A stretch of DNA of 64,000 bases from a virus, in the IMG/VR virus record IMGVR_UViG_3300024261_000009, positions 1 to 64,000 of that record; one strand, written 5' to 3'. Under the pieces are notes generated by a model. That model saw only the letters and a program-made list of their open reading frames with translations. It was not told the origin of the DNA and did not search any database. Both the position numbers and the translations under genes were made by a program. Shown here piece by piece: positions 2,755 through 31,950 of this stretch. Each line of letters begins with the position of its first letter. Position 1 is the stretch's first letter.

Positions 2755-3555
2755 TTTTCCTCGGGGTTAGGCCCTTCGTTAAGGACACCTAGGTACTTAA
2801 CACTAATTCAATACCGAGAACCTAAAAAGACAACACGAAGTTGTTATAGTTGTTAGCAGACAGCAGAGTTCCTCGGAGTTCGTTTCCAAAGTTCTCTCCG
2901 AGAGAACGAGGAAAAGAATCCGGGAGCTTCTGCAGGCTCGAACAAACTAATAAATGGCTTAGAACCATTAAAACGTCCTACCAAAGAAACGTATCGTTTC
3001 CTACATAGGGCAGCTGTTGTCTTAGTCTTGGTGGGCTCTTAAGTCCCGATCTCTGGGACTTAAGATTTTAAGTTAGTAGAAGCCTGAAAATATCAGGCAC
3101 CAAAAATGACTAGAGATCTGTCTATTTGGATTTTTAAGACTCACGTATTTACGTTCGAAGTTCTACTGCAGAGTTCCGGGACTGAATTTCTTCCTTTCAA
3201 AGAATCTAATTTTGGAACCCAACATAACGTAAAAGGGTGGCGGAAGCCGCTCGTGGCGACCAGGCCGACCCCGGTTAGCACCGGGGAAACACTAAGAAGA
3301 CGTATCGTCTCCGATCCCAGAAGGATCTTAGTGCTGAGTCTAGAACCTCCATAATCACGAACGCGACTATCGGTGGGTTGTTGGATAAAAAACTAAAGAG
3401 AGGTACTATGCGAGAGGTAGACAGGACTTAATAAATTGTACGCGCGTACTAAGCCCCCTAACGACTGCAGGGAGGACATTTTTTAGGTTTACCCTAGAGA
3501 GATCTCACAAGGCGGCCAACCTGATAAGAAATCTCTAGCATCAGACTGTTGTCTA
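2755..3555. ncRNA. Candidate large structured non-coding RNA or structured DNA element (about 800 nt)
   Basis: No convincing ORF; many stems, e.g. 2891-2907, 2953-2969, 2986-3000, 3037-3065 (11 bp perfect), 3082-3098, 3237-3250 (GGAA tetraloop), 3269-3286, 3290-3333; long-range pairing 2920-2943 with 3153-3179. Confidence 0.5.
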
Positions 3556-3633
3556 TTGCATACTCTTATACCTGCAAATAAGCTAAATTTGCGCATTTAT
3601 GGTCACAACTACAGAAACCTTAAGGAGACTCCA

Positions 3634-4302
3634 ATGCCTCGAAAGTTATCGGATATCGGAAGTAACGGGGGCAGTATGGACCTTGGTTCCGAACTAACCT
3701 CTGACGCTAGTATTACCCCAGAAATAACTCCCAGGGATACTCAAAACCTACGGGGGGAAGTCGAGTCTGATCCCGATGTTTCTCCAGGATCCGAGTCCCC
3801 CGAGGCTTCTGGGACTGCAGAGGAAAACCTGAAAGAGTACCTGGACACGCCGAGGTCCCTGTGGCTAGAAGAGTTAGGGACGCTAAAAGTAACCCCGGAG
3901 GAAGCAGCAAACATCTTTGACGTGGTTATGTCTACCGGCAAGTACCTAGAGACTTACCGGGTTGGGAAAACCGTGGTTAAGATTAGAACACGGACCACAG
4001 TAGACGCTGATCGAACGATAGAAATACTTCAAGAGCAGCGCCCTGAGTCTGCCGCGGTGTACTCACACCTAGTTTCCAGGGTCAACCTTGCTTCGAGTTT
4101 GGTAGAGTACGGAGAAAGTAAATTTCCGCACACCGCCCCCTCGGAGGATAATCGGGAGAGGCTCGACTCGGAGTGGAGGGAGCGTTACCGCTTTTGCGCT
4201 GCTTTACCCGCCCCCGCGTTTTACGCCCTGAGTCAGATCTTACAAAAGTTTGACGAGAAGGTCTCTCTATCTTGTGACGCCAGGAGTCTGGAAAATTTTT
4301 AG
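3634..4302 (+). CDS. Tail assembly chaperone (gpG-like)
   Basis: AGGAG SD before ATG 3634 (track start 3556 probably too early); lies upstream of the tape-measure-like gene; ends on a slippery heptamer. Confidence 0.65.
   Translation: MPRKLSDIGSNGGSMDLGSELTSDASITPEITPRDTQNLRGEVESDPDVSPGSESPEASGTAEENLKEYLDTPRSLWLEELGTLKVTPEEAANIFDVVMSTGKYLETYRVGKTVVKIRTRTTVDADRTIEILQEQRPESAAVYSHLVSRVNLASSLVEYGESKFPHTAPSEDNRERLDSEWRERYRFCAALPAPAFYALSQILQKFDEKVSLSCDARSLENF
4293..4299 (+). promoter_or_regulatory. Programmed -1 ribosomal frameshift heptamer A AAT TTT
   Basis: X XXY YYZ heptamer directly before TAG 4300-4302; -1 frame is open from 4299 into ORF 4386-4640; downstream stem GGGGAA 4312-4317 / TTCCCC 4348-4353. 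Confidence 0.8.
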
Positions 4303-4640
4303 AGACCTCTTGGGGAAGTGCTCGAGCGGAGCTCATCCTAGAAGGAGTTCCCCTCCCCCCAAGGGGTAGTGCTAAGAGCGCAGTTATGGAGGAGATGGTA
4401 AATAGAAGAAGAGTACGCGCTTGGAGGGCTCAGGAGATGGCACTTTTGGCTCAGGCGTACACTTCTACAAGAAATGAAAAACTTTTTGAGCGTTTAGGCA
4501 GTCAGGCGACTAAAATTATGTCAATGGTCCTCCACTTGCCGGGGGCCTATGAGCCTGAGCAGCTTCCAGAGCCTGAGACAGCGTCTCCCTCGGATGTAGA
4601 ACTCTTGGCTCTATTGGACAAGAACTTGCCGGATCTTTAG
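4299..4640 (+). CDS. Frameshift extension of tail assembly chaperone (gpGT-like; includes track ORF 4386-4640)
   Basis: -1 frame reads LETSWGSARAELILEGVPLPPRGSAKSAV then MEEMVNRRR without a stop. Confidence 0.7.
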   Translation, partial: LETSWGSARAELILEGVPLPPRGSAKSAVMEEMVNRRRVRAWRAQEMALLAQAYTSTRNEKLFERLGSQATKIMSMVLHLPGAYEPEQLPEPETASPSDVELLALLDKNLPDL

Positions 4641-4650
4641 GGGACCCTAA

Positions 4651-7600
4651 ATGGCTGATAATACTTTCTCTAGCATAGCCCAGGGATACTCTGGTGCCCA
4701 GGATGCCCTCAGAGGTCTGGGAATGCTCCCAGGGTCCTTTCGCCCTATGGACGGGGGAGGAGCCTCACTACAGGTTCCCACCATAGCGCCCATGCATACA
4801 CAACCCATGTTTATGCCGCGCCCTCCCATGAGCAGCACACTGCCCTTTCCTTCCCAGTCCCCCCAATTTGCCCCTCAGTCGGGTCCCGGGATCCCTGCTC
4901 CCATGCACCCGAGTATGATGTCGCCTCGCATGAGTGCCTTTGCACCTCAGCAAGGGACTTACCTCCCTCCGGTACCCGCGGCTCCTACCGCTATGGGGAC
5001 CCTTGAGGCTCGAAGAATCCTAATGGGGCAGCAGACTATAGGCACCAACCAGAACGTACTTAAGACTCGGGCCCAGGCAGCGGCCACGTACGGAGCCTTT
5101 TCAGACTCTCTGTCCGTAATACCAGGAGCCCTGGGCGCTGGGTTTGCAGGATCCAAACTGGGTGGAGCCGTGGGCGCTATGGCAGGCGGTGTCGGTGCCC
5201 CCGTAGGAGCCGCCCTTGGTGGTATTGCTGCTAGTATGGGGTACGCGGCGTTTCATAACTACGCGGATGACTACGCCCGGGAGCGGGAACAACACGCCGC
5301 TATGGGAGGGTATAGCCTCCGAGGAGTGACCTCAGGCAATATGGTGGGTGCCTTCGGAACCGGAATTAGTCCGATGAAGCAGATGCAACTTTCGAAGCAA
5401 ATGATTTCTCAGGCTAAGCAGTCTGGGTTTCACGAGACCTTAAAGGGAGGAGACTTCTCTACTACCCTAGGCATGGCTTCTGAGATGGGTCTTATGCGAG
5501 GCCACACAAACGATGTGGGCCAGACAGTTTCCCGTGTTAAAAATTTGGCTACCGTGGCTAGAGACATAATGCGCCTAGGAGAGGGGATTACCCAGCAGGA
5601 TGCCATGGAACTACAAGCGCTTACCCAAGGTTTGGGGGTTAGTACGGGCACTTTCCAAACCCACAACCTGGGGCAGAAATTGGTTACTGCCGCTAAGGTA
5701 GCGGGCGTATCCCCAGGTCAAGCAACTCAACAAGGCTTTGTGGCTGGGGCCCAGGCTTTTCAGCAGGCCGGGATGTCCTCTGTTCTTGGGGGACTTACAG
5801 GGTTAAGCACTCTTACTCAAGCAGGGTCAATAGCTAATTCTGGTAATCTAACCGCAAGCCAACTAGCCGCTCTCGGCGGGCAGAGAGGACTTCACCGAAG
5901 CCTTCTCGGAGCACATACCGGTTTTCTATCAAATAATATGGGATCTATGGCGTTGGGGTCTATAGATACGGATGGGAACCTTGACCTAGATTCTTTTCAG
6001 TCCAACCTGTTGGGGTCCGGAGGCTCTGTAAGAAGTATGAACCTTCGGGGTCGAAAAGCCCTGCGTGGGGACGACCTAACTTCGGGACAGATTGGGTTGA
6101 GAAAGCAGCTCCTCTTAGAAAAAATGCCAGATATGACGCGAAAGATGCAGGAGGAGATGACTCCTATGCAAACTAACGCGCTCATGGTTAGGCAGGTTAC
6201 CTCTAGGATGGAGGAGGCGATGAGCACGGGCCGATTTGTCACTGACACCCAGGCAGCGGCTAGTCTGGGCGTAGCTCCCGAGCAGTGGAGCGCCGTTAAG
6301 TCTTCAATGAGTAATATAGATTCTCAGGTAAGGGACATAAACCGTCAGGAGAGGCTGGTTAGCCGAGAGAAGCGTGCCCGGGGTGCAGCTGAGTATGATG
6401 ACATGACTCGGAAAACAGTGTGGCAGGAGTACGCCCCAGACTGGGCCCAGTCAGCGGCCTCCTCGACAGGAGAGTTCTTCTCTGATTTGACTACGGTCTC
6501 CGAATGGGACAACGATGTGGGAAGGATGGTCCGGCGCAGGACTAAGGAAAGAGCTGTCAGGTCTTCTTTAATTGAAGCGAATGCAGCAGGAAGTCGCCTA
6601 GGCCAGGAGAAAGCCAACACATCTTCTGTACGCTTTAACGAGGGTCAGAGAAAGCTGCTGAATGAGGAAGGTACTCAAGAGTTTCTCGATTCCTTAGGGG
6701 GGCTGGGAAATCTAGGTAAGGACGTCCGTACCAGTACCGCCTCTAGAGGGGGATTCAGAATGACTGCTCCAGAGTTGGGGCGTTTAGCGTCTGGTCAGGA
6801 GGAGACGTTTGGAGACGATTTCCAGGCAAGTGAAACCCTACAAAGAAACTTTAACTTCTTAGACCCCCAGGGCGGTGACGGTCTCGCTAAGTTTGCAATG
6901 ACGGCTAGTGAAGAGCGAGATTATATTTACGATAGTGCTAAACGCAACCTTAATTCGGCGGGTTCCCTCAAGTACTACTCCGAGACAGTAGGGGGCTCGA
7001 CCAACCGGTCTTATATAGGGGATGTTGACTTTTCCAGGACGGGCAGAGGCTTGGATAGTGCAAACCTGAGTGATAAAGAGCGAAGTCGTGTCGCCGCTCT
7101 TATAAAGAGCACTGTTAGGTCTACGGCTGGTAAGCAGTTTGATTTAGCCTTTAACGACGGGAAAGACCCTAGTCTTAAGGAGCTTACCAACATGAACCTC
7201 AAGGTAGGGCAAGATGTTGATGCCATTCTCAAGAGAGAGAATATCACTCTGACCGCAGAGGACCGAGAGAACCTTAGATCCAGAACAAGTGAACTCGCAG
7301 AGAGAAGCGCGGCCCAAAAAATGGGAGAAACAGAAAAAAGCCGAAAGTTCGGAGCTAAATACATATCCTCCGTCGAGGGCGTTATTAATGAACTAAGTAA
7401 TGAGGACTTTGCCTTTAATGACGGGTTCAAGAATGCCGACTCGGGCGCTGCGGGAATAAACACCTTCCTTAATAATGCTCGCCCCTCCGCGCAATCGAGG
7501 CCGGATGGCGGTATCTTCGAAGAGCTAATTCCGGGGCCTTGGGCGACGGAGGCGCTGCGGGAATACGGCCGTGATCTGCAGGTCCCGCACGACTTGGAAG

Positions 7601-8535
7601 ATTACAAGGGCAAGCAACTTTCCGCTCATTTTGAGGTCCTTGAGACTTCTGGCCTTAGCGGCAAGGATCAAAAGTTGGCCATGTTGGCTATGGGCTTCCG
7701 AGATGACCAGTTTGATTCTGGGCACCAGGAGACGGTCAAAAGAACCGGGTTTAATAAGGATCAGATCCAGAATATGCGCCGCCGTATGATGTCTGGGGAC
7801 CTCGCGTCTCTGGGCAAGAAGTATACAGATAAGGGGTGGGAAGAGGGAGCCGACGGAGTCTTTAGTTTGGGCGATAGTTTTAATAAGTCGAACTTATTCA
7901 AAGACGAAAACATGGATAAGCTTATCAAGGCTAAGGGAGGCCAGCAAGCCCGGTCCCACTTGAACATAGGTCTAGGAAACATAGGGTTTCACGGAGGCGG
8001 TAATACAGAAGGCCTAGACTCGGAAAACGACACTGTAGAGCAGTTGAAAGCCAAAGACTTCCTAAGTCCTGAGGAGATACAGGCGGCAGTAAAGCAGGCT
8101 ACTAAGACCGGGGTTTCCGTACAGGAGGCACTCCTTGGAAAAGAGGGGATGGCCGCTGATAAGGTCGCTAAAGTCATAAAAAGTGGGTCTAGTGTTGAAG
8201 GTCTCTTAAGAGAAAAGGCAAATCTAGCCCAGTACGGAACAGCGGAAGAAAAAGCCGACGCTGAGAAGGCTATACGAGCAATCGTACAAAGAACCTTGGT
8301 AGACGCTGGAGACTCCGCGGCCAGACAAGGGGAGAGTACCGGCAGTTCCGCTTCAGCCAACGCGGGTGATTTTGGTAACGCTGTTAAAGAGTTTAAGACG
8401 ACGATAAATTCCATGAATCAGTACGCTTCCGGGAAGTCTCTAGAGACAGTACTCTCGGGCCACTTGAGTGCTTTTCGTGATATTAGGGATTCTTTATCTG
8501 AGTTGAAAACAGCGATAGTAAAACTTAAGGACTAA
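4651..8535 (+). CDS. Tape measure-like protein
   Basis: 1294 aa, Gly/Ala/Gln-rich helical, glycine-zipper hydrophobic segment near aa 150-200; follows G/GT chaperones and precedes baseplate genes. Confidence 0.7.
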   Translation: MADNTFSSIAQGYSGAQDALRGLGMLPGSFRPMDGGGASLQVPTIAPMHTQPMFMPRPPMSSTLPFPSQSPQFAPQSGPGIPAPMHPSMMSPRMSAFAPQQGTYLPPVPAAPTAMGTLEARRILMGQQTIGTNQNVLKTRAQAAATYGAFSDSLSVIPGALGAGFAGSKLGGAVGAMAGGVGAPVGAALGGIAASMGYAAFHNYADDYAREREQHAAMGGYSLRGVTSGNMVGAFGTGISPMKQMQLSKQMISQAKQSGFHETLKGGDFSTTLGMASEMGLMRGHTNDVGQTVSRVKNLATVARDIMRLGEGITQQDAMELQALTQGLGVSTGTFQTHNLGQKLVTAAKVAGVSPGQATQQGFVAGAQAFQQAGMSSVLGGLTGLSTLTQAGSIANSGNLTASQLAALGGQRGLHRSLLGAHTGFLSNNMGSMALGSIDTDGNLDLDSFQSNLLGSGGSVRSMNLRGRKALRGDDLTSGQIGLRKQLLLEKMPDMTRKMQEEMTPMQTNALMVRQVTSRMEEAMSTGRFVTDTQAAASLGVAPEQWSAVKSSMSNIDSQVRDINRQERLVSREKRARGAAEYDDMTRKTVWQEYAPDWAQSAASSTGEFFSDLTTVSEWDNDVGRMVRRRTKERAVRSSLIEANAAGSRLGQEKANTSSVRFNEGQRKLLNEEGTQEFLDSLGGLGNLGKDVRTSTASRGGFRMTAPELGRLASGQEETFGDDFQASETLQRNFNFLDPQGGDGLAKFAMTASEERDYIYDSAKRNLNSAGSLKYYSETVGGSTNRSYIGDVDFSRTGRGLDSANLSDKERSRVAALIKSTVRSTAGKQFDLAFNDGKDPSLKELTNMNLKVGQDVDAILKRENITLTAEDRENLRSRTSELAERSAAQKMGETEKSRKFGAKYISSVEGVINELSNEDFAFNDGFKNADSGAAGINTFLNNARPSAQSRPDGGIFEELIPGPWATEALREYGRDLQVPHDLEDYKGKQLSAHFEVLETSGLSGKDQKLAMLAMGFRDDQFDSGHQETVKRTGFNKDQIQNMRRRMMSGDLASLGKKYTDKGWEEGADGVFSLGDSFNKSNLFKDENMDKLIKAKGGQQARSHLNIGLGNIGFHGGGNTEGLDSENDTVEQLKAKDFLSPEEIQAAVKQATKTGVSVQEALLGKEGMAADKVAKVIKSGSSVEGLLREKANLAQYGTAEEKADAEKAIRAIVQRTLVDAGDSAARQGESTGSSASANAGDFGNAVKEFKTTINSMNQYASGKSLETVLSGHLSAFRDIRDSLSELKTAIVKLKD

Positions 8536-8544
8536 GGACGGATT

Positions 8545-8742
8545 ATGAAAAAGCCACCCACTATTACCATTCCCAGTGGAAGAAATTATCTAGAATACAT
8601 CTTGTCAGGGCTGATATCCAGCTTTAAGAAGGGGCGAAAGGTCGCTACTGTCGATGTGGTCAATATACATGCGAGAGCAGACTCCATGGACCGTCAGAAT
8701 GTTGTCTTAATACGTTCCGAGGAGGACCCCGATGCCCAGTAA
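8545..8742 (+). CDS. Small hypothetical protein, tail module
   Basis: AAGGA SD, ATG start, overlaps next gene. Confidence 0.55.
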   Translation: MKKPPTITIPSGRNYLEYILSGLISSFKKGRKVATVDVVNIHARADSMDRQNVVLIRSEEDPDAQ

Positions 8743-9742
8743 GTTAGTAACTAAGGTCGGGGGAGTGTATAGCCCCAAACCCGCCACACTACCCAGGTAC
8801 TCTTCTCACCATGGGAGGGACATACTCGATAACCTTACCGTGGCAAGGATATACCTAACGGGTCTTTCTGAGGGGGGTATCTCGGGCAGTGACTTAGGTT
8901 TATCTACTGCGGGCTATAAAACTTTGACAGGCCTATTTTCTTTAAACGGGCAAGCTTCCAGGGCTTACGTGGGGTTTTTCTTAGAGTCTGTTACTGAAAG
9001 AAGCGAGGAAAAGGCACAGGTAACATCTCTTAACGGAGACCGCTTTGCTGCCTACTACCTAGGAGCCCAGCCCACCCAGTACGCGTTTAGGGGCAAGCTT
9101 CTAAATACTATGCATGACGACTGGAGCACTATTTTTTCTGAGCTTTATAGCAGCGTTTTCAGAGGGTCTGTCGTTGCCGCTCAGAGAAGGATGGTTCAAG
9201 TAGCTTACGGGGACAAGATAGTTACTGGGGCCATGTCGGGGTTTGAGCAGGTCATTGACTCCGGTAACGAGAGTGTAAGGCAGTTTAGCTTTTCTCTTTT
9301 GGTGTACCATGTTCTTCATACTAGCGAGCCAAATCAGGATAGGTTCTCCACAACCTTTTTGGGTGACGCTGCCAACTTCGAGTTGGTTGACGTACAATCT
9401 AGCACGGAGGACCCTAACTCCGTGGTTACCGCTTACGTGACGCCCCCGCCAAGACCCAGGAAACCCCGGAAGAGTAAAAAGACGCTGGCCTCTTGTTCCC
9501 CAAAGCACATAACGAACTCTAGGGGGGTCAAAACTTCGACCGGTAAAACGGAAGCCCAGGCGGAGAATATAAAGAAGTGCACTGCCGGGATAAAAACCTT
9601 GAAGGAGGCTCAGAGGTTGTACGCTGACAAAACCACGGCGCAGCCGCTTAAGCGCGCCCTCCTAGAATTAAACGGTACCCGCGGCTGGGCAGGTTCTGTA
9701 GCGTCTGTCAAAGCAGCCAAGGACAAGGAATCTACAAAGTAA
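8732..9742 (+). CDS. Putative tail tube initiator/baseplate-associated protein with basic C-terminal tail
   Basis: Position after TMP; beta-rich core (FFLESVTERSEEK...YAFRGKLLNT); Pro/Lys-rich C-terminus. Confidence 0.4.
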   Translation: MPSKLVTKVGGVYSPKPATLPRYSSHHGRDILDNLTVARIYLTGLSEGGISGSDLGLSTAGYKTLTGLFSLNGQASRAYVGFFLESVTERSEEKAQVTSLNGDRFAAYYLGAQPTQYAFRGKLLNTMHDDWSTIFSELYSSVFRGSVVAAQRRMVQVAYGDKIVTGAMSGFEQVIDSGNESVRQFSFSLLVYHVLHTSEPNQDRFSTTFLGDAANFELVDVQSSTEDPNSVVTAYVTPPPRPRKPRKSKKTLASCSPKHITNSRGVKTSTGKTEAQAENIKKCTAGIKTLKEAQRLYADKTTAQPLKRALLELNGTRGWAGSVASVKAAKDKESTK

Positions 9743-9767
9743 GTAGTACCAGGAAGTAGGACCCAAA

Positions 9768-10673
9768 ATGCCCCAGGATTTCATACCGCCACTAATTTAC
9801 TCCGAGTCCCCCCTAGACGGGGACACTCGCGTCGGCAGAGCTTCCGGAATCCATCTCAAGTGTACGGACACGGGAACGTCGGACGCGGAGTTGGATCCCT
9901 CTACTCTGAGGGTCTCTGTCCATTACCGTCCTGAAGACGAAGCCCTCGTTAACCAGCCTTGGCCCCAGGTTGTGGTGTACGAGAACCAGGCTTTCCTTAA
10001 TACTGTCTGGAGCAACTCCTCCACGATAGACTTTAGGCCCTCACTGCCAGACATACCTACAGATATTGATCTTTTTCTTAGAAGAGATACTCTTGCCCCC
10101 TTTGGGCAAAGAATACGTGTAAGAGTTACCGTAGCTGACAAAGCTAATAACTCATCAACTCGGGAAATGAGTTACGGGTTCGTGGAGAACAAGATTTACT
10201 CTGGAGATGACCCCCATCCGCTAGAAGAGACCTTACTGGACACCTTTGGTGTACCCGAGATTGATGACTACATACTACTATTGTACACTTCTCTTATAGA
10301 CCCCACGGGGTTAGACGCCAATAAGATACCCTACTTAGCCACTAGAAGAGCGCTAGGTATACTCAGTGTGTTAAACATGAAGGCGGCTTTGCTAGGTCTT
10401 TTTGATGTAGACGAGTCTCTTATGAACCACAAGGTGGAAAATGCATTGTCCCTAAACGAGGTACTGGTCTCCCCGGAGATACTGAGATCCTCGTATGAGA
10501 ACTTAAGGTCCTTCCTGCTAAGGCGTTCTGATTTATGCCCCAATGGCTACCTTGAGTTTGCTAATAACAGTATATTAAGTACGAAACCACAAACGGTCCT
10601 CGGAGCTTACATAACCCTATGGTTAGTGTTGTGCGCCTACAGGATCTCAAGGGAGACAGTAAGTGCTGGGTGA
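9768..10673 (+). CDS. Hypothetical structural protein
   Basis: 301-aa ORF co-oriented within the tail operon. Confidence 0.6.
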   Translation: MPQDFIPPLIYSESPLDGDTRVGRASGIHLKCTDTGTSDAELDPSTLRVSVHYRPEDEALVNQPWPQVVVYENQAFLNTVWSNSSTIDFRPSLPDIPTDIDLFLRRDTLAPFGQRIRVRVTVADKANNSSTREMSYGFVENKIYSGDDPHPLEETLLDTFGVPEIDDYILLLYTSLIDPTGLDANKIPYLATRRALGILSVLNMKAALLGLFDVDESLMNHKVENALSLNEVLVSPEILRSSYENLRSFLLRRSDLCPNGYLEFANNSILSTKPQTVLGAYITLWLVLCAYRISRETVSAG

Positions 10674-13806: not shown

Positions 13807-13809
13807 GAA

Positions 13810-14985: not shown

Positions 14986-14986
14986 C

Positions 14987-15415: not shown

Positions 15416-15416
15416 T

Positions 15417-21086: not shown

Positions 21087-21252
21087 CTTTAGTCGAGGGT
21101 CTCATCGTAAAGTAGAACTACAGGGAAGTTCTGCTGTGGGAGACGTAGGTACCTTGACTATAAGAGTAAAGGTGGGTGTGGCGGCTAGTCCCGCGGAGGC
21201 AACTCCTGGGAATCCCGTTTACCACGACATAACTATACAGGTTTTCTCCTAA
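21049..21252 (+). pseudogene. Start-less +1-frame half Ig-like repeat after the wedge gene stop
   Basis: Open frame 21049-21252 reads ...RGSHRKVELQGSSAVGDVGTLTIRVKV...YHDITIQVFS*, matching the second half of the preceding repeats; no start codon before the domain. Confidence 0.55.
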
Positions 21253-21346
21253 GCAATTCTTACTATTGTTTTGCTTACAGCCGGGGTAGGGTATACCTTT
21301 CTTGTGGCTACCCTATGTTTAGATTGCGGGGCTTAGAGGTCAATTT

Positions 21347-21934: not shown

Positions 21935-21944
21935 AGAGAATCGT

Positions 21945-23747: not shown

Positions 23748-23758
23748 GGTATCCCTAA

Positions 23759-24115
23759 GTGACTCCTCCCATCCTAGATAAACTCACGGATAAGCTGGAA
23801 GCGTCTAGGACCTCCCCCGTAAAGATGTTCCTGCTAGGGGTCGCTGTTTCCATCGTCATTTGGTTGGTGTCCCGAACACGAAAAAAATTGGTTCACCGGA
23901 AAGAGTACCTAATTAAAAAATCTGAAGCGCTCTTGGTGGTGGACTTTGTCAGTAAGACCACCGACGAGCAGGCTCGGATACTAGATGCTATTCGCCTAAA
24001 TAGAAACGCTGCCAAAGTCATTGGCAAGAAGATAGCCTACTTGGACAAAAAGATTGAAAACACTGAGAATCGTATTAATTCTGCTCGTTCTTTTGACGAC
24101 CTCGAGGACCTTTAG
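23759..24115 (+). CDS. Membrane-anchored coiled-coil protein (i-spanin-like)
   Basis: Single N-terminal TM (MFLLGVAVSIVIWLV) followed by coiled coil; overlaps next gene. Confidence 0.45.
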   Translation: MTPPILDKLTDKLEASRTSPVKMFLLGVAVSIVIWLVSRTRKKLVHRKEYLIKKSEALLVVDFVSKTTDEQARILDAIRLNRNAAKVIGKKIAYLDKKIENTENRINSARSFDDLEDL

Positions 24116-24527
24116 TAAGCCTAAGTGGTCTGTGCCCGAGGATCTTCTTCAGAACCTACCCCTATCTTTGCCCAACTGGACTCAGAGAGGCGAGCACGCC
24201 TGTTATGACCTGGAGTCGGCTAAAAAATTAAAGATCTACGAGGCCCGATGTATGGGGGCTCGTGATAAGCTTAACCTAGTCCAACCCCTGCTGATGGATC
24301 AGGTAGGGGCTCTAAACGCGTATTACGCGTCTATGATTCTGCTAACTACCGCACTTAAAAAGTCCAAAAAAGCGCTTGAGGACCAGATTAAGGTCTCGGA
24401 TAGTTCGGAGCGTCTTAGGCAGGATGCCGAGTACTGGTCTATTACCGGCGGTATGCTTCCTTGGGTTATAACAGGAGTATCCTCCGCGTTTATAGTAGGA
24501 TATGTAGCGGGAAGCGTATCTGACTAG
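24054..24527 (+). CDS. Exported/membrane protein with signal peptide and C-terminal TM (spanin-partner-like)
   Basis: MKTLRIVLILLVLLTT signal; C-terminal hydrophobic LPWVITGVSSAFIVGYVAG; 62-nt overlap with upstream gene. Confidence 0.45.
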   Translation: MKTLRIVLILLVLLTTSRTFSKPKWSVPEDLLQNLPLSLPNWTQRGEHACYDLESAKKLKIYEARCMGARDKLNLVQPLLMDQVGALNAYYASMILLTTALKKSKKALEDQIKVSDSSERLRQDAEYWSITGGMLPWVITGVSSAFIVGYVAGSVSD

Positions 24528-25006
24528 GCGAGTGGGGTAGGTACTGGGGGAGCTCCGGGCACGAGATAGTGAACCCCCGCGGGCATAGCAGGAGTAATTC
24601 CCTTAGCCCACATGTCTATGGCTATAGCAACTTGGTTTAGAACCTGAGATTGGTCTATAGCACCAAAACCAGCAGCAAATAGGGGCATTAGTATCTGTGG
24701 TAGAAGACCCAGGGGCACCACAGGGGTAACGCCCGGTAGCGCTAGAGGTATCGCCTGGGTTAGTGCCGCCACTAGGCCCGCGTCTAGCGCCCTACAGAAG
24801 GTGTCTGGACTTGGGTTAGGTACTGCCATACTAGCAGAGAGGGGACCTCTTATAGCAGGGTCTAGGATAGCAGGGTTTAGCGGGGGAGTAGCCGCGCTAA
24901 GGTACCGCACTAGAGCCAGTGTCCAGATGTTAGCGGCGGTGGTCGAATCCGGAGCCGCTCTTGTAGGTTCTAATCCGGATATTAATGTTGCTACTACTAA
25001 GGGCAA
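24524..25006 (-). CDS. Hypothetical Pro/Ala-rich hydrophobic protein
   Basis: 160-aa ORF, TTG start overlapping the RuvC stop. Confidence 0.55.
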   Translation of the reverse strand: MPLVVATLISGLEPTRAAPDSTTAANIWTLALVRYLSAATPPLNPAILDPAIRGPLSASMAVPNPSPDTFCRALDAGLVAALTQAIPLALPGVTPVVPLGLLPQILMPLFAAGFGAIDQSQVLNQVAIAIDMWAKGITPAMPAGVHYLVPGAPPVPTPLA

Positions 25007-25524
25007 AGTTCTTTCCTCATCTTCTGAACAACTTCCTCAGAAGCCCTGCGTCTAACCAGGGATGAACCCTCTAGGACATCCTGACCCAGCCTTGCTAGGT
25101 GCCAGGCGTCCGAGATATCTTCTTGGTTTGTCCGACACCCTTGCTCCTGAGCAGCCTTCATCATTAATTCTTTCTTTGCGGTTCCGACCCCAACCGCATA
25201 CTTTTTCAGAGTCTTCGGTGGGACTATAATCACTGGAATCTTCTTTTTGAAAAGAACCAGCTTGAAAGTACCGTATACCTCGCCCAAGGTGAAGGGTTTG
25301 TTTATAGACCTGTAGGAGGGTCCTTCCATGGCTGCCAGATCTATTTTCTTACCTTCTAGGGTTTTTAGGACGGCTTCCTCAATAAATGCTAGTCTTTCTC
25401 CTTCTTTTAAGTTTCCTGGTTTAATAACCTGCTCTATAGTAATCCTATCGGGGGATAGCAGTACTATCCCCGTAGACCTGGCACTTGCATCTATACCTAG
25501 GACGGTGGTTTGAAATGGCATCAT
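24997..25524 (-). CDS. ruvC: RuvC-like Holliday junction resolvase
   Basis: VLGIDASARSTG, AMEGP, PKTLKKYAVGVGTAKK, DISDAWHLA; likely start ATG 25524 (GAGG upstream); track start 25581. Confidence 0.85.
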   Translation of the reverse strand: MMPFQTTVLGIDASARSTGIVLLSPDRITIEQVIKPGNLKEGERLAFIEEAVLKTLEGKKIDLAAMEGPSYRSINKPFTLGEVYGTFKLVLFKKKIPVIIVPPKTLKKYAVGVGTAKKELMMKAAQEQGCRTNQEDISDAWHLARLGQDVLEGSSLVRRRASEEVVQKMRKELCP

Positions 25525-25886
25525 TAAGTTTGCGCCTCGTGTGCTCAAATCAGGATTTGGGAGCAGCCCGTATGGTTGCAACGGTCACTAACCCTGTGGA
25601 CATCCCAGGTGAGATATTTGTATTAAAAGTAGGCTTAGCCGGTGCTGGGGACACGTATGACAGAATAGCTACCCCCTACGATATCCAGACTTTCCCCAGT
25701 ATTAAGGACGAGTCCCTTGGCTTTTATAGGGTTAGCACAGCTACTCTTGAATTTACAGATATAGATACAGCTTCCAAGGCTAGGGAGAGCATTCAGACCT
25801 CCGTTAAGCGACTCCTTGACGAGTACTCTACTGCTCAGACAAGCTTCGTCGGAGTTTTTGACCTCAACCTCGTATCGGGAGCTTAG
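25515..25886 (+). CDS. Hypothetical protein, paralog 1 of a three-gene family
   Basis: ATG 25515 after GGTGG; shares RIAT..D...P...YR...L.F.D.DTA pattern with 26699-27976. Confidence 0.6.
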   Translation: MASLSLRLVCSNQDLGAARMVATVTNPVDIPGEIFVLKVGLAGAGDTYDRIATPYDIQTFPSIKDESLGFYRVSTATLEFTDIDTASKARESIQTSVKRLLDEYSTAQTSFVGVFDLNLVSGA

Positions 25887-25890
25887 CCTC

Positions 25891-26706
25891 ATGTCGCAGA
25901 TAACCCTGACAAAGAGCATCTTCTTTGACGCCTCTGCCCCTCTTGAGATGGGTTGGAAGTTGTCTGTTCAAGCCTCAGGGACCTCCGGCGCTCCGGATAG
26001 GGTCTTCTTAAACAAGAGGTTCTTTGGGCCGAGGACCGGTTTCACGGGAACAGATTCTGATTATGTTCTTACGGGACAGTCTCAGAATTCCGTTCAGGAG
26101 TACGCCTCGGTCTATTGGTCGGAGTCAAAGTTCCTTCGAGTTGCGGCTGAGGAACAGCTCCCGGATACGGCTTCCAGTGACCCTGCTCTGTCTCACCCCT
26201 TTCCAAGGATTGGGTCAGGCCCTCTAACCATAGCCTCCTTTGGCTACCATGAGTTTTTGTCACGCAGTTTCGAGGAGCACCACTCTACTTGGGACTCGGC
26301 TAACTCCAGGTACCTAGAAATTAAGGCTGGGCTACTAGCTCTGGTTCAGGTCGAAGAGTCTCTAGCTGTTTCTAGCGTTTCCTTGGGCGTTCGGGGAGAT
26401 CCTCCGCTAAGGAACGGCACGCTGTATCAGGCCTACCCGGGGGATGTGATACACCTCGTTGCCTGGGGCGGGTCAGGTCAATACTCCTATGGGATACAGT
26501 CCGAACTGGGCGTGTCTGATAATAATTATCAGAGCTCAATAGATTCTTCTACAGGGAGGTTTGTTATGGGACCTGTGGTAGTTTCCGGAACCGCCAAGGT
26601 TGTCGTCTCTGTGACAGACGTTCCCAGTGCCCTGATAGCAAACTTAACTATAAACATGGTCCTCCCTCCCGAGGTCTCTGGTCCGGAGATAATACAAGAT
26701 GTCTAG
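25891..26706 (+). CDS. Hypothetical protein, divergent paralog 2 with C-terminal Ig-like domain
   Basis: ATG 25891 after GGAG; FLRVAAEEQLPD motif; C-terminal GGSGQYSY...VVVSVTD Ig-like pattern. Confidence 0.55.
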   Translation: MSQITLTKSIFFDASAPLEMGWKLSVQASGTSGAPDRVFLNKRFFGPRTGFTGTDSDYVLTGQSQNSVQEYASVYWSESKFLRVAAEEQLPDTASSDPALSHPFPRIGSGPLTIASFGYHEFLSRSFEEHHSTWDSANSRYLEIKAGLLALVQVEESLAVSSVSLGVRGDPPLRNGTLYQAYPGDVIHLVAWGGSGQYSYGIQSELGVSDNNYQSSIDSSTGRFVMGPVVVSGTAKVVVSVTDVPSALIANLTINMVLPPEVSGPEIIQDV

Positions 26707-27976
26707 TGTCACTAAGAGTGAGATCGTCCTTAAGCAGCGGCGGTATGCCGCAACGATAAACGGTCAGCCCTACTACAACATAGAGGTATCCGCGGAGCCT
26801 GGGGCTACTCCCGTAAGTTCTGATAGACCTATGGACAGTCACGTTTTCATAATGACCATAGGGACCACTTCCTCAGAAGACTCCTTTGCCCGGGTTGCTA
26901 CAATTGCAGATATGGACCTTGTTCCAACATTCAGAGACTTCTCTGTTTCTAGGGGCCAGACTGAGTATAGAACCGCTAATACTACGCTACGGTTTGTTGA
27001 TTTGGACACAGCTATAGCCGCCATCCCTGTTTTAAGAGACAGGGTTAACAACCTAGTGGACGTGTATACTACGGCGGTGCGTGACTTCCTTACTCCCACC
27101 TTGCCGGGATCTAATTTTCCCTCCGAGTTTTCTCTTCCGATGGGCGCTACTATCCTGTCGGTTAAGCAGGGGCTCATAGATTCTTACACTAAGGCTAGAG
27201 ATTCTCGAGCCGCGGTGGACTCTGACGTCGCAATAGTGCAGAGCGATTATGATAGTAACCTACTTTCCTTTGAGTGCGAGGCTCAAAAGAGCGCTATACA
27301 CTGTGATTACAGTTCTCAGTTTGTTGATATACACACGCAGCTGACCCCGCTGGTTAATCAGTTGAGCGCCGCTACTCTGGCCTTAGAGAAGGCTGCCGCA
27401 AACGCCAGCAGAAGTAGAGTCTTTAAGTTCTCCTCTCAGGAGGCTAAAGCCTCGGATCCCAACCTGGTTGATCCCAGTTGGTCCAGCGCTACAAGCGTAA
27501 CCTACTCCTTACCTGCTAATAGTGGAGTTACTCTGGGGGACCTTATAGAGGTAAGTGCTTCGGGCAGCGTTCAGATTAGAACCATCGTAGGGACAGCGGC
27601 CCCGGGACTCGAAGTCGCTCCCGCCCTAGACGGAATTCCTAATAACGTATCCCCTCACTTTAAAGTATACTCTATACTGGGGGCGTTCAATTTCTCAGAC
27701 TACGGGTCTACTGCCCAAGCCGCAGCCGAAACTCGAGCGGCCTACACTAAGTTTGTAAGCGAAACATTCGTCTCTGTAGGCTCGAAAAAGCAGGCTAGCG
27801 AAACGGAGTGCACTACTTCTAAGCAGGCCTCCGAGACCGCCTGGGGCACTGCGGAGACTTCCAAGGCCCTGGTACAGGCTAAGGACGCAGAGCTCACAAA
27901 AGCCCAAAGAGTAGAGACGGAAGCAACCGCGGAGTTAATTGCTTACTGCCCCACCCTAGACATATCCTCTCTATAG
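26699..27976 (+). CDS. Hypothetical protein, paralog 3 with coiled-coil segments
   Basis: FARVATIADMDLVP...YRTANTTLRFVDLDTA; long Ala/Glu/Lys helical regions. Confidence 0.6.
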   Translation: MSSVTKSEIVLKQRRYAATINGQPYYNIEVSAEPGATPVSSDRPMDSHVFIMTIGTTSSEDSFARVATIADMDLVPTFRDFSVSRGQTEYRTANTTLRFVDLDTAIAAIPVLRDRVNNLVDVYTTAVRDFLTPTLPGSNFPSEFSLPMGATILSVKQGLIDSYTKARDSRAAVDSDVAIVQSDYDSNLLSFECEAQKSAIHCDYSSQFVDIHTQLTPLVNQLSAATLALEKAAANASRSRVFKFSSQEAKASDPNLVDPSWSSATSVTYSLPANSGVTLGDLIEVSASGSVQIRTIVGTAAPGLEVAPALDGIPNNVSPHFKVYSILGAFNFSDYGSTAQAAAETRAAYTKFVSETFVSVGSKKQASETECTTSKQASETAWGTAETSKALVQAKDAELTKAQRVETEATAELIAYCPTLDISSL

Positions 27977-27981
27977 GACCT

Positions 27982-28011
27982 AAAAAAAGAGAGGCCCCTT
28001 AAGGCCCCTCT
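27982..28011 (-). terminator. Probable intrinsic terminator ending the minus-strand RT operon
   Basis: Minus strand AGAGGGGCCTTAAGGGGCCTCT imperfect GC stem followed by CTTTTTTT; between convergent genes. Confidence 0.5.
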
Positions 28012-28014
28012 GTG

Positions 28015-29508
28015 TTACTGATTAACAGCCCTCTCAAAGAGGTTCTCTTGAGAGGACAGTATCTCGGCGGATCTCCGGCATCCGTCAACCTCTACGTTTG
28101 TTGCCAGGAACAGTGCTATACTCTCAGAAGTTTCGGGGTCTCTTTCTAGTACCGATTCGAGAAACCCGTCTTCCAACGCTTTTCTTATGTGCCTGAGTTT
28201 CAGACCGGAGTCTGAGGTGTTTGTGACGTTGTGTACCCAGGCAGACTCCTTATCACGACCCCTTTGTTCGTCTAGAAAGTCCTTCACGACCCGCAGCCCC
28301 TCTCTAATCCTGGGGGATGTTGTTACGCTACACAGTTTAGATATCACGGAGTCTAGCTTAGATAGGTTAGGCCCCCCTAGACTTTCTAGTATACGCAAGT
28401 TGGTCTCCCTGGAAGTTCCCGCCTTAAAAAGGTCTCCCATATCCAGTACTCCCGCCTGGCGAAAACACGCCTCCAGTTGCTCCGTGTTGTCTTTACCGGG
28501 TATTAACATTGATATTGCAAGCGCTGTGAAGGCAACATCAAATTGAGTCAGCTCTATGTACCTCTGTAGAGATAAGTTTCGGAAAGCCTCGACTTGCTTC
28601 CTCCCGTCCCTCATAACCTTCGTTCTATACCCTTTCCTGCCGGTAACAGAGGGGTCCCACTCTAGGGTGTCCGAGTACGTCTCGTTCTCTTTAAGAAGAA
28701 GATTCCAGTGGACATCATACTGCCACTGAGAAACTAATTCTAAGTATCTAGTAGCGACTTCTCTAACCTCCGGAAGTTCCGTAACCCTTTTGCCGTAGAG
28801 GGGGTCATTTGTGGTGGGTGAGATGTGTGCGAGGTCTATTAGGTATGACCCAACACGCGTGCTCCCTGACATAATATGCCAAAGCCGCTCGGAGAGAATT
28901 TCTTCGGAAGTGTTCTCGTTGGGGAACTCCACGCGGACTCTCAGGTGTGTGACGGATGTGGTAGCAACTCGAAGATCGTATATTGCTTTTAAACAAGCTC
29001 GAGCTACTTTTGAGGGGTCTAACGATTCCTTAGTCTCCTCTCGTACTGTACGCCTCCTCTCATTTTTTCCTGCGGATTTATTGACCGAACCCCAAAAGTT
29101 TACAACACTCTGGAGTTCGCTAGAGGCAGAACAATCCTCGGAGTCTAGAGAGTTAGTCCATGCTAGGGCCGGGAGAACAGTGTTCCTACCCGCTAGCAGG
29201 GAGCACCTGTGATCCCCTGTTAGAAGCAGCGCGGGTTTTGAATCTCCCCCCAGGAGTTTAGCCGCCTCGGATTTTGCCTTTCTAGAGGACATCCCAGGAG
29301 GCGCTACCGCCATTGCAAACCTTCTATCACGCCCGTTGTACCTGTCCAGCGGTGCCACAGTACCCAAGAGAACGGACACGCCTGGGTTTAGGTTCACCCA
29401 GATACTGTGTTCCCTGAGGTAGGCCACATTCTTAGTTTCGTCTACTACCCCGTTTTCCCAACGGAGTACCTTCTCAAGTTTTACCTCTTCAGGTATTACA
29501 ATTTTCAC
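28015..29508 (-). CDS. Hypothetical protein (RT operon, last gene)
   Basis: 497-aa ORF, 4-nt overlap with upstream gene; no motif recognised. Confidence 0.7.
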   Translation of the reverse strand: MKIVIPEEVKLEKVLRWENGVVDETKNVAYLREHSIWVNLNPGVSVLLGTVAPLDRYNGRDRRFAMAVAPPGMSSRKAKSEAAKLLGGDSKPALLLTGDHRCSLLAGRNTVLPALAWTNSLDSEDCSASSELQSVVNFWGSVNKSAGKNERRRTVREETKESLDPSKVARACLKAIYDLRVATTSVTHLRVRVEFPNENTSEEILSERLWHIMSGSTRVGSYLIDLAHISPTTNDPLYGKRVTELPEVREVATRYLELVSQWQYDVHWNLLLKENETYSDTLEWDPSVTGRKGYRTKVMRDGRKQVEAFRNLSLQRYIELTQFDVAFTALAISMLIPGKDNTEQLEACFRQAGVLDMGDLFKAGTSRETNLRILESLGGPNLSKLDSVISKLCSVTTSPRIREGLRVVKDFLDEQRGRDKESAWVHNVTNTSDSGLKLRHIRKALEDGFLESVLERDPETSESIALFLATNVEVDGCRRSAEILSSQENLFERAVNQ

Positions 29509-30836
29509 CAGTTTTTCTCCTCATCCCACGAGGTGGGTCTCCGTAACAACGACCAAAGATCCTGGTACTCTGGTACGTGAAGATCCGCTAAGCTTTTAAA
29601 CTCAAGCCCACGCCAGTTGGTAAGCCTAACCGACAGAGTCTTAGAACCGAGCACATCTATCGATGAAAAGTCTTCTTCCCAAGACCCGTAAAACATCTTA
29701 TTACGCGTGTATTTCCCACTACCTAGCACCCAAGCAAGAATAAGAGACTGCTCCTTAGTCAGGGGGATCTTGTCTCTTTTTAACCGGTGCTCTAGGTGAG
29801 GGTGCTCCTCAATGAATCTCTTTAGGGTGAAGGTCTGCTCTCTGTACGCCCCCCAAGAGCGTACAGTCTTCACCAGGTATTCTCCCTTGCGCTCACTGGG
29901 CGTAACTCGGACAACAGAGCCCTTGTGACCCCTAGGCCCGAGCGCAGAAAGGGTGGCGTCACATCCTATGAGCTGAATCGCGGCATGTATTCCTGGGTTC
30001 TTGTACGTGGGGATAACCTTCCATCGATTTAATACGGAAGCTTTCACAAAGGACTCCAATTCCTGCGGAGAAACCCCTCCTGAGCAACGCTGTCTCCGCC
30101 ACTTGCTGGAAGAATCCTCGCAGTAGCTACGGCCGTAAGAAGCCTCCGACAGAACACAGTTACGGCACTCGCGGTTCCCGAAAGCTCTGCTCTTGCCTGC
30201 GCTTACATTCCGGGCCTTCACTCTCGAGTAGGCTTTTTTTATCGACTGCTCCTTTAAGTCGATAAGCGTAATGCACGGGTACTCCTCACAGAACAGATCG
30301 TCAGTAGCTATAGACGACTTGACTAGGGTCATCCCGGCATGTTTTCCCAGAGAAGAGTCCCAGTCTTCAGTCCCCAAGTTGTTTCCGGTGACGCCCCAAG
30401 TGGTAGTATTAAGAAGCATTTCTGAGATGTCTAGTACTGACTTAGGGATGTTGTCTTGCAAACAGGTTTCCTGGACGTCGCAGGAAGTGCAGCCTTTGTC
30501 CGAAAACTTCAACATACTGGTACAGTTGTCCGTGAACTTTTTTAATTCGTATACATCTCCCATAGACACAACCGAGTAGAGTATCTCTGAGAGTTCCTTA
30601 ATAGACTCCTGTCGGGGCATAACGTCGGTCACTAAGCCGTTGTAGTATACCGCTAGTGGTTTCCCCAAGAAGATACTTAGTTTCTTGGCCGCTTCCACGG
30701 ACTTGTCTAGGGTCTCTCCTCCGTCAGCGTAAACTCCTGAAAGGGTAACCCTCTTTAAAGCGGGTCTGCCGTCCCAACCAACCCCGCTCCAGATGTGTAC
30801 CACTGAGGAAGCCTTAGTTATATTAAGAGTTGTCAT
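29505..30836 (-). CDS. Hypothetical Cys-rich protein coupled to the RT
   Basis: 443 aa; CTSCDVQETC and CRNC...YC...RC clusters; start overlaps RT stop by 14 nt. Confidence 0.7.
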   Translation of the reverse strand: MTTLNITKASSVVHIWSGVGWDGRPALKRVTLSGVYADGGETLDKSVEAAKKLSIFLGKPLAVYYNGLVTDVMPRQESIKELSEILYSVVSMGDVYELKKFTDNCTSMLKFSDKGCTSCDVQETCLQDNIPKSVLDISEMLLNTTTWGVTGNNLGTEDWDSSLGKHAGMTLVKSSIATDDLFCEEYPCITLIDLKEQSIKKAYSRVKARNVSAGKSRAFGNRECRNCVLSEASYGRSYCEDSSSKWRRQRCSGGVSPQELESFVKASVLNRWKVIPTYKNPGIHAAIQLIGCDATLSALGPRGHKGSVVRVTPSERKGEYLVKTVRSWGAYREQTFTLKRFIEEHPHLEHRLKRDKIPLTKEQSLILAWVLGSGKYTRNKMFYGSWEEDFSSIDVLGSKTLSVRLTNWRGLEFKSLADLHVPEYQDLWSLLRRPTSWDEEKNW

Positions 30837-31923
30837 ACTTGTCCTCCTCTTCCCAGAGTCGTGTTTTTCTAGTATCTTCCTTATCCAGAGCGCGCTTAAA
30901 ACTTGCCTGAAGGCACTCGTTCCTTGCCGGAGCTAGGACTTGACCAACGTAGCTAAGTTTGCCTCTTAGGTGGGATATTAGGGCTTCTGTGGTGGTTATC
31001 TTAAAGTTTACCTTTTCTCCGGCTCTCTTGACCTGAGACTCGAAACCGTACTTCTCGCAGTTATTAAGGATGGCCCGGAGGTCTTTGTACTTTTCACGCC
31101 TTATATTGGCGTGTTCGTTAACTACTAGACCTAGAACTTCCTGCCTCCGCCATTTAGGCGCTACACGAATCTTGTGTACCCGCCACCCGGTTTTTTTAAT
31201 AATACTGATTACCGATTCTTTAAAACGGTCAACTTCTGTCCTTGGAAGAACTTGTGGGTGGGTCAGGTAGATATTATCGGAGTACCGTATATACTCCCAC
31301 CCCAACGACCGCGCGATTCGTAGTACTTCCTGGTCAAAGAAAAGGTCAGCCACCCGATTCGCGACCGTAGGGGATATGGGCGTGCCCTGGGGCATAAACC
31401 GTCTTCCCCTGGAGTCGGTACAACAGCACAGTTGTGCCATAAGGCTGGAAACCTGTCGGTTGTAGCCTACTGTTGTAAACATCTTCCTTACCTGGCTCAG
31501 TTTTATGGACCCGAAGAAATTCTTTAGGTCCATAGTTAGCAGTATACCCGCCCCCGCACATTTCCGAGCGGCATCGGCGGTACGCCGCCCCTTCTCGTAC
31601 GCCGCCACGTGGTCCCCAACAGGGATTTTCTTCACAAAGTTCCTGTCTAAGGACCGCTGCACCGCTTTGAGTCTCTCGTCCGGAACATGAATGGGTCGCC
31701 TCTTACCCGCCCGCCCAGACTTTCCCCGTTTGGCCACGCTATGCTCTTCATACATAGAACCGCTATGCCCCGCAGGTACTTGGGATCCTCTAATTAGCCA
31801 CCACAGCGTTTTATTTCGTATCCCCAGATTTAGGGCTAGAGTGAAGTCATCTATCGCTGTGGGAAGGCCCTCGTTAGGTCTAGTTAGACCAATCTCTTCT
31901 ATAACAGTGCTTTTGTAAGCCAT
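30823..31923 (-). CDS. Retron-type reverse transcriptase with non-canonical YSDN motif
   Basis: RPIHVPDERLKAVQ, MDLKNFFGSI, MPQGTPISPTVAN, YIRYSDN (31273-31284 for YSDN), RQEVLGLVVN (VTG-like), LRAILNNC; GAGGAG SD. Confidence 0.9.
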   Translation of the reverse strand: MAYKSTVIEEIGLTRPNEGLPTAIDDFTLALNLGIRNKTLWWLIRGSQVPAGHSGSMYEEHSVAKRGKSGRAGKRRPIHVPDERLKAVQRSLDRNFVKKIPVGDHVAAYEKGRRTADAARKCAGAGILLTMDLKNFFGSIKLSQVRKMFTTVGYNRQVSSLMAQLCCCTDSRGRRFMPQGTPISPTVANRVADLFFDQEVLRIARSLGWEYIRYSDNIYLTHPQVLPRTEVDRFKESVISIIKKTGWRVHKIRVAPKWRRQEVLGLVVNEHANIRREKYKDLRAILNNCEKYGFESQVKRAGEKVNFKITTTEALISHLRGKLSYVGQVLAPARNECLQASFKRALDKEDTRKTRLWEEEDKYDNS

Positions 31924-31934
31924 TACTACTCTCC

Positions 31935-31949
31935 TCAGCGTATCGCTGA
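31935..31949. promoter_or_regulatory. Hairpin TCAGCG-TAT-CGCTGA overlapping the RT Shine-Dalgarno
   Basis: Perfect 6-bp stem filling the 27-nt gap before the RT; on the mRNA the 3' arm runs into GAGGAG. Confidence 0.65.
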
Positions 31950-31950
31950 A

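Follow-up and report, generated by a model that had tools for sequence, protein, structure and literature searches.

Triloop hairpins with a constrained apex and compensating stems in the non-coding DNA of a large uncultured phage, candidate punctuation signals of its transcripts

In our study, short hairpins sharing the core CG-AUA-CG were examined in a window of 64,000 nucleotides (nt), which is the first 64 kb of the 117-kb linear IMG/VR virus record IMGVR_UViG_3300024261_000009 (estimated completeness 73%). The hairpins were found to be real and not a product of chance. The CG-AUA-CG core is the local form of a hairpin class that is shared across a clade of large uncultured phages. The motif consists of a stem of free sequence and 7–9 base pairs (bp) that is closed by a 5'G-C3' pair, and of a 3-nt loop whose last base is A, with AGU commonly present two bases past the stem; it lies in the non-coding DNA of one strand, its stem evolves by compensatory changes, and it is spread over three genomes. 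We tentatively favour the reading that the hairpins punctuate transcripts as RNA signals read by a factor and serve in forming 3' ends, in RNA processing or in RNA stability, with chances that we put slightly below even. The genome of the window is called G000 here; G001, G002, G004, G006 and the L-numbers denote the uncultured-phage genomes and loci compared with it.

A preliminary description had placed three perfect hairpins at 2986–3000 (GAAACG-TAT-CGTTTC), 3298–3310 (AGACG-TAT-CGTCT) and 31935–31949 (TCAGCG-TAT-CGCTGA), and these coordinates were right. The common orientation and the non-coding location also held for all four hairpins that it listed. The strand had to be corrected. The minus strand was the better-folding strand for every hairpin, as A.C mismatches of the plus strand become G.U pairs there and give stems of 7–8 bp, which extend the three hairpins to 2984–3002, 3296–3312 and 31934–31950. 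Because the stems extend through G.U pairs and are more stable on it, the minus strand was taken as the functional strand. The first hairpin, H1 (AGGAAACG-AUA-CGUUUCUU, 2984–3002, minus strand), contained 8 bp including one G.U pair, 230 nt upstream of a gene for a sigma factor of the extracytoplasmic function (ECF) type, and folded with −6.1 kcal/mol on the minus strand versus −4.4 on the plus strand. H2 (GGAGACG-AUA-CGUCUUC, 3296–3312, minus strand; −7.9 versus −3.9 kcal/mol) was followed by UU-AGU, with the AGU at 3293–3291, and formed the middle of a conserved cluster of three hairpins. H3 (UUCAGCG-AUA-CGCUGAG, 31934–31950, minus strand; AGU at 31930–31928) was present directly before the gene of a retron-like reverse transcriptase (RT). 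It began 1 nt past the stop codon of the upstream open reading frame (ORF) of 260 amino acids (aa), and its 3' arm entered the GAGGAG ribosome-binding site of the RT gene, half of which was covered by the stem; the order was stop codon, hairpin, ribosome-binding site and AUG. H4 (GGGGGCG-AUA-CGUCCCC) was found outside the window, at 99131–99147 of the genome (L007:1496–1512), in a 550-nt non-coding gap and 125 nt upstream of a pentapeptide-repeat gene. The fourth hairpin of the preliminary description, a near variant at 40744–40761, kept its position and orientation and lost its kinship. This hairpin (CGUAAUAAC-AUAC-GUUAUUAUG, 40742–40763, minus strand; −6.4 versus −3.7 kcal/mol) started 5 nt past the stop codon of polA and contained a 9-bp A/U-rich stem, a 4-nt loop and a closing C-G pair, which place it outside the class.

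The bare 7-mer CGTATCG was not enriched in the window (5 copies versus 4.06 expected). Over the whole genome, 7 forward and 0 reverse copies were found, against 5 and 4 for a control pattern. All four CGAUACG hairpins were non-coding, and the three CGTATCG copies without a hairpin were inside ORFs. When both strands of the genome were searched with G.U pairs allowed, the largest family of hairpins with the same core was that of the minus-strand CGAUACG, with four members. A same-core family of at least four was obtained in 1 of 200 shuffled genomes for stems of at least 7 bp and in 18 of 200 for stems of at least 6 bp. For the non-coding DNA alone (10.2 kb), a family of four was obtained in none of 1500 shuffles, the maximum being three, which was reached in six shuffles; the count against shuffled sequence that had been proposed earlier therefore gave enrichment of the hairpin family. 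A cruder first test, limited to perfect plus-strand hairpins in the window, was not significant, with a family of at least three in 25 of 300 shuffles. Short perfect hairpins in general (3-nt loop, stem of at least 5 bp) were present in excess across the window, 120 versus 69 ± 8.5 in shuffles.

At the positions corresponding to H1, H2 and H3 in related phages, the stem is kept by compensatory changes and the CGAUACG core is not, each covariation test resting on three to five sequences. Counterparts of H2 with a 7-bp stem were found in L091, L132, L133 and G001. Across these five phages (alignment A5), both sides had changed in 5 of the 7 pairs and 97% of the cells were paired, a level of covariation reached by none of 500 shuffles. 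The loops were AUA, AUUA, CCA, UUA and UAA and the second pair was variable, while the closing G-C pair, the final A of the loop and the downstream AGU were invariant. The counterparts of H1 were GAAAGAG-CUA-CUCUUUC in L091 and GAAGUCG-UUA-CGACCUC in L093; in these three phages both sides had changed in 4 of 7 pairs, with 95% of the cells paired. For H3, the counterparts CUAGCG-AUA-CGCUAG (L008) and GGUUGCG-AAA-CGCAACU (L094) were both located just 5' of the ribosome-binding site of RT genes whose products were 70% and 58% identical to that of G000, respectively. As read by eye, H3 retained GCG-ANA-CGC with three different outer stems. In L091, the counterparts of H1 and H2 carried two different cores, AG-CUA-CU versus UG-AUUA-CG, and the cores therefore do not co-vary as one recognition set. 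G001 was found to favour an apex of its own, CG-CAA-CG, with 5 copies, 3 of them intergenic. Of the earlier picture of a conserved loop on variable paired stems, the constrained apex and the compensating free stems were borne out in relatives, as was a stem-loop acting on a single strand; the core itself was not kept by the counterparts, and the protein proposed to recognise it is a predicted one. The hairpins are thus not operators of the double-stranded kind.

Hairpins were assigned to the class if their stem had 7 bp or more, was closed by a 5'G-C3' pair and carried a 3-nt loop with A as its last base (G-NNA-C), a pattern that was fixed from nine orthologous hairpins before being tested on genomes. 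For this census, genes were called crudely, by greedy choice of ORFs with a minimum length of 90 aa. With the same 7-bp minimum for the stem, G-NNA-C made up 22 of 70 triloop hairpins in sense-strand non-coding DNA versus 37 of 688 elsewhere (p = 4.6e-10). In G001 and G002 taken by themselves, a set independent of the cases described earlier, it made up 14 of 45 versus 26 of 460 (p = 1.2e-6). It was by far the commonest triloop type in the non-coding DNA of one strand in the three genomes. The enriched strand, the minus strand of G000 and the plus strand of G001 and G002, was the one that reads as sense for the RT, polA and sigma genes. G000 contained 8 members, of which H1, H2, H3 and GGGAAAG-UAA-CUUUCCC (40688–40704, minus strand, followed by UU-AGU-AGU) were in the window; the last, a neighbour of the near variant, was found in the gap between the convergent genes for polA and terminase, 64 nt past the stop of polA. 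On the polA-sense strand of this gap, 1 member was present in G000, 3 in G001 and 4 in G002, one of the G002 copies being GCUGGCG-AUA-CGCCAGC. AGU was found 0–4 nt past the stem in 11 of the 23 members, at an offset of 2 in eight, versus a background of 8% (p = 5e-7). As many as 21 of the 23 could sit in the transcript of a same-strand gene, the exceptions being G001 146825 and, under the crude ORF calls, G002 77289. About ten members were present 1–64 nt past a same-strand stop codon, for example after polA in the three genomes, after the pentapeptide gene, after the 260-aa gene before the RT and after three G001 genes. Among distant RT-bearing phages, G004 was weakly enriched for the class, without the AGU, and G006 was not enriched. 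The polA-terminase gap of G002 (41344–41732, L088) also contained four sense-strand copies of a box AAAT(A/T)CGT(G/A), which alternated with the triloop hairpins at a spacing of ~115–150 nt. The box was also found in the window at 40593 (−) and 3150 (−), and the antisense strands of all three genomes were without it.

We infer that the hairpins act in the form of RNA and not of single-stranded DNA, that they are read by a factor, and that this leads to the formation of RNA ends or to stability. Such a factor-read RNA element is suggested because the stems are free and compensated, the apex is constrained, the G.U pairs are confined to one strand and the orientation is sense. Punctuation of transcripts is suggested by the positions of the sites, which are found past stop codons, in the gaps between cistrons and within a structured leader or non-coding RNA. 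The factor, of phage or host origin, would read the apex of the hairpin together with its 3' flank and would make or protect an RNA end at that point, either through processing or through termination that needs no U-tract. The hairpin remaining at the 3' terminus would then stabilise the upstream message and separate the expression of neighbouring genes. The H3 copy may in addition gate the translation of the RT, as a hairpin that overlaps the ribosome-binding site and is opened by a terminating ribosome suggests translational coupling or gating. In such a case the terminating ribosome of the upstream gene would open the stem, and translation of the RT would depend on that ribosome or on the factor.

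Several points weigh against this reading. The transcribed strand and the RNA ends are deduced from the sequence. The class was found on neither strand of the non-coding DNA that separates plus-strand genes (those of the structural and RNA polymerase blocks), and a general processing signal would not be expected to skip such gaps; the signal may be specific to one temporal gene class or to one DNA strand. H1, H2, H4 and a copy at 101559 of the genome were not near the 3' end of any gene, AGU was missing from about half of the class members, and no candidate nuclease or RNA-binding protein was identified. We also know of no special stability of AUA triloops that would account for the four G000 copies sharing all seven bases of the apex. 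Seven identical apex bases go beyond stability alone, and a lineage-specific reader therefore stays plausible.

Hairpins of this kind have precedents in phage RNA. CUUCGG hairpins, which Tuerk and co-workers are said to have described in 1988, reportedly occur in the intercistronic regions of phage T4 messenger RNAs (mRNAs). As in T4, many short sense-strand hairpins with a fixed loop and closing pair and free stems were found here in phage intergenic RNA. In T4 the explanation lies in the exceptional stability of the UUCG tetraloop, whereas in our study the loop had 3 nt, only its last base and the closing pair were fixed, and the motif included a 3' AGU. The RNase III sites of phage T7 are irregular helices of ~20 bp or more in early and late mRNAs, which leave protective 3' hairpins and separate cistrons. 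They resemble the present class in having about ten sense-strand intergenic structures per genome in which shape is conserved over sequence, but they span roughly two helical turns and the stems of 7–9 bp found here are too short for RNase III. Intrinsic terminators likewise form a sense-strand stem-loop shortly past a stop codon. In contrast to their G+C-rich stem with a U run within 0–2 nt, the class is without a U-tract: no U-run was visible in the printed 3' flanks (by eye, with no formal count), and among the four CG-AUA-CG hairpins a lenient terminator pattern was found in the scanned regions for H2 only. Hairpins with a conserved apex, such as the T4 CUUCGG hairpins, the T7 RNase III sites and the lambda nut sites, opened up phage RNA biology earlier. 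The present motif offers a compact and testable RNA signal (7–9 bp stem, G-NNA-C apex, 3' AGU) for an uncultured family of large aquatic phages, which carry a multisubunit RNA polymerase of their own, sigma factors and a retron-like RT. It also offers a handle for annotating where transcripts begin and end in these genomes, and for tracking down its reader.

It is rather unlikely that the CG-AUA-CG hairpins of the G000 lineage form an operator regulon, in which a sequence-specific RNA-binding protein, either a translational repressor or an antiterminator like lambda N acting at boxB, would read the core and co-regulate the sigma, RT and pentapeptide-repeat genes. An identical 7-nt apex on four hairpins with unrelated outer stems is the classic signature of apex recognition, H3 overlaps the ribosome-binding site, and H1, H2 and H4 are located in 5' leaders. 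The boxB hairpins of the lambda nut sites share with the present class a short stem, a phage-specific apex and repetition in leaders. Their apices differ between phages, and the CG-CAA-CG apex of G001 resembles such phage-specific variants. However, the shared apex was not maintained in L091, many class members followed genes rather than preceding them, and no candidate protein was found. The nut sites differ further in having a boxA partner, of which no shared upstream linear motif across the 23 class sites gave a sign, in their fewer copies, and in a GNRA-like pentaloop instead of a 3-nt loop.

An element acting at the DNA level, with hairpins extruded from one strand for replication priming, nicking or N4-type hairpin promoters, appears improbable. 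The strict strand bias across three collinear genomes and the absence of the class from both strands of the plus-strand gene blocks would be expected of such an element. The N4 promoter contains a stem of 5–7 bp and a 3-nt loop and is used by a giant virion polymerase, which starts at a distance of ~11 nt from the centre of the loop; the hairpins found here agree with this in stem, loop and spacing, and for 7-bp stems the start would coincide with the A of the AGU. In contrast, G.U pairs stabilise RNA more than G.T pairs stabilise DNA, and the complementary strand, which would be the template, carries A.C mismatches. A start at the AGU of H3 would fall downstream of the ribosome-binding site of the RT. 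The polymerase found was a multisubunit enzyme with sigma factors and not of the N4 type, no search having been aimed at a virion polymerase gene. The middle base of AGT is a purine, unlike that of any primase recognition triplet to our knowledge.

The preliminary description had also proposed autoregulation by the RT or a partner, through binding to the hairpin on the mRNA of the RT, together with binding to the hairpins of 2755–3555 as those of a template RNA, and this we consider very improbable. The RT gene (30823–31923, minus strand) encodes 366 aa and matched Pfam RVT_1 (7.8e-15) and PADLOC RT_XIII (201 bits); its score against the NCBIfam model of retron St85, 148 bits, was below the cutoff of 235. 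The catalytic box of retron RTs is YADD, and in this family it was YSD followed by N or D (YSDN in G000). Retron RTs also contain NAXXH in region X and VTG in region Y (PMC7736814), in place of which the G000 protein had ADAARKC and VLG. The RT was a conserved replication-module gene of a large-phage family, found at 55 IMG/VR loci. Its gene order was conserved in uncultured phages with contigs of up to ~160 kb: a DUF2201/VWA protein, an ORF of 226–272 aa, the RT and further ORFs without assigned function. No usable hint on what the neighbours do came from Pfam, PHROGs, PADLOC, NCBIfam or the ESM Atlas. The non-coding RNA that adjoins the RT in retrons had no counterpart, as only 27 nt were present between the RT and the 260-aa ORF and the two genes overlap or abut in relatives. 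No long inverted repeats of the a1/a2 type were found near the RT, and no template/variable repeat pair of at least 30 nt, as in diversity-generating retroelements with their adenine-specific differences, was found in the window; the RT scored as retron-type. By its sequence, with neither an adjacent non-coding RNA nor NAXXH, the RT would fall outside the retrons.

A class member directly before the RT start in G000, L008 and L094 would agree with binding by the RT, as would the retron-like nature of the enzyme. The frequent U-AGU past the stem recalls the context of the branching G of retrons. Retron RTs recognise stem-loops in their own RNA, as in the msr/msd system (PMC7736814); the hairpins found here are instead scattered over the genome, and their geometry is unlike that of a retron, in which the branching G comes after the 5' strand of a long-range stem. 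Most RT relatives were without a class member in the leader. No comparable short hairpin was found in the RT leaders of L010, L014/G002, L018 and L095, that of L096 contained a different and larger fold over the ribosome-binding site, and that of G001 contained an unrelated 8-bp hairpin with the loop UUG, the apex of which (AG-UUG-CU) had no partners elsewhere in the G001 genome. The differing cores of L091 and the presence of the class at many sites unrelated to the RT, for example after polA and after the pentapeptide-repeat gene, also speak against a specific link, which is weakened further by the lack of enrichment in the RT-bearing G006. For 2755–3555 as a template RNA of the RT no evidence was found; it is 28 kb from the RT, and its best-conserved part resembles a separate transcript of ~325 nt. 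A link of the hairpins specifically to the RT is tempting but not supported, and it is removed here from the description of these phages. No more credible is a bolder version, in which the hairpin with NN-AGU would be the docking and priming site of the retron-like RT of the clade, the G of AGU serving as the branching G; the phage would copy parts of early transcripts or of the ~325-nt RNA into DNA during replication, and the copy in the RT leader would double as an autoregulatory site. Chance resemblance among ordinary, functionally unrelated hairpins, with which the unenriched 7-mer, the first window-level test and the general excess of hairpins would agree, is the least credible explanation in view of the non-coding shuffles, the independent enrichment of the class in two other genomes, the covariation at orthologous sites and the conserved 3' AGU.

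The phage is large and carries its own multisubunit RNA polymerase, two sigma factors and the retron-like RT. The window also codes for a large terminase subunit, a family-A DNA polymerase and a primase-helicase. The ECF-type sigma factor gene (2098–2754, minus strand; Pfam Sigma70_r2 and Sigma70_r4_2) was located downstream of H1 and H2 on the same strand, and a gene for a sigma-70-like factor was found at 48262–49002 on the plus strand. The beta subunit of RNA polymerase, fused to the N-terminal part of beta', was encoded at 56806–61167 on the plus strand (1453 aa). A 592-aa ORF from 63071, 52–56% identical to its counterparts in G001 and G002, might be the rest of beta'. A gene for RNase H was present at 51588–52031 on the minus strand, 20 kb from the RT. 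G001 (160,861 bp, complete, with terminal repeats) and G002 were collinear with G000 but inverted. The GenBank phage collection contained no DNA match and only distant matches to the RT, single-protein scans of IMG/VR found no close relatives, and scans of the window with Rfam (at the gathering score) and for tRNA and tmRNA gave no match.

H1 and H2 are located in a non-coding region of 879 nt (2755–3633, minus strand) between the ECF sigma gene and the first gene of the structural operon, the true start of which was found to be 3634. This region merits study in its own right. The z-scores of its fold were −5.2 (minus strand) and −3.4 (plus strand). The counterpart in L091 was 891 nt long and shared long identical blocks with G000, though the sigma proteins were only 53% identical. 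The three-hairpin cluster contained hairpin A (GAUCC-UUCUG-GGAUC, 3313–3327, minus strand) and hairpin C (CCCCGG-UGCUAA-CCGGGG, 3269–3286, minus strand) besides H2. At the position of hairpin A, relatives contained different sequences (AAUCC..GGAUU, CGUCUC..GAGAUG, GUUC..GAAC and AGCCU..AGGCU, by eye). Hairpin C adjoins H2, and its inner 14 nt, CCGGUGCNAACCGG, were invariant; in the form CCGG-UGCNAA-CCGG it was found once each in G000, L091/L092, L132, L133 and G001, always at the same place, and it was not found in G002. A search with its pattern returned G001-type records, two chance matches and no others.

A -10 box, TATAAG, at 3565–3570 on the minus strand is a putative promoter. Its ATAAG was invariant in six phages (alignment A4) and was preceded by TGN in four relatives, and a scan with the sigma-70 consensus found no promoter in this region. 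A structured transcript of ~325 nt, which includes a 27-nt block identical in L091, would span roughly 3557–3231 of the minus strand, and the leader of the sigma gene, with H1 in it, would come after it. In L091, a terminator-like hairpin with U5 was present on the same strand, 25 nt past hairpin C. Rfam gave no family for 2600–3700, all matches being at the level of chance, and the 31 metagenome matches to an 18-nt conserved block were all unrelated outside it. No similarity was found between this region and the other large non-coding region of the genome, 99007–99558. A reading of H1 and H2 as ECF promoters (GGAAAC ... CGT) was set aside on inspection only, as the spacing was wrong. The box AGACAAC(A) was found three times in the non-coding region, at 3555–3546 (−), at 3023–3014 (−) and inverted at 2828–2836 (+), and the block ACTTCGTGTTGTCTTTTT was identical in G000, L091 and L093.

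Other repeats were also found in these genomes. The 10-bp palindrome TACGCGCGTA was present in 9 copies in G000 versus ~0.1 expected, at 3439, 20084, 35810, 58488 and 63182 of the window and at four more places in the genome. It was found in ~40 copies in the collinear G001 and in none in G002, nearly all copies being inside ORFs, and it resembles a site at which DNA is bound, nicked or modified. A 20-nt string around GGCTGAGGAACCCAAGGCTG, with 8–10 copies at unmapped positions in the G000 genome, probably represents a repeat within a protein-coding gene. The terminal repeats of G001 (1–400 and 160400–160861; L077, L085) were found to consist of 129-bp tandem units, each of which contained the hairpin GAGUACC-AGU-GGUGCUC.

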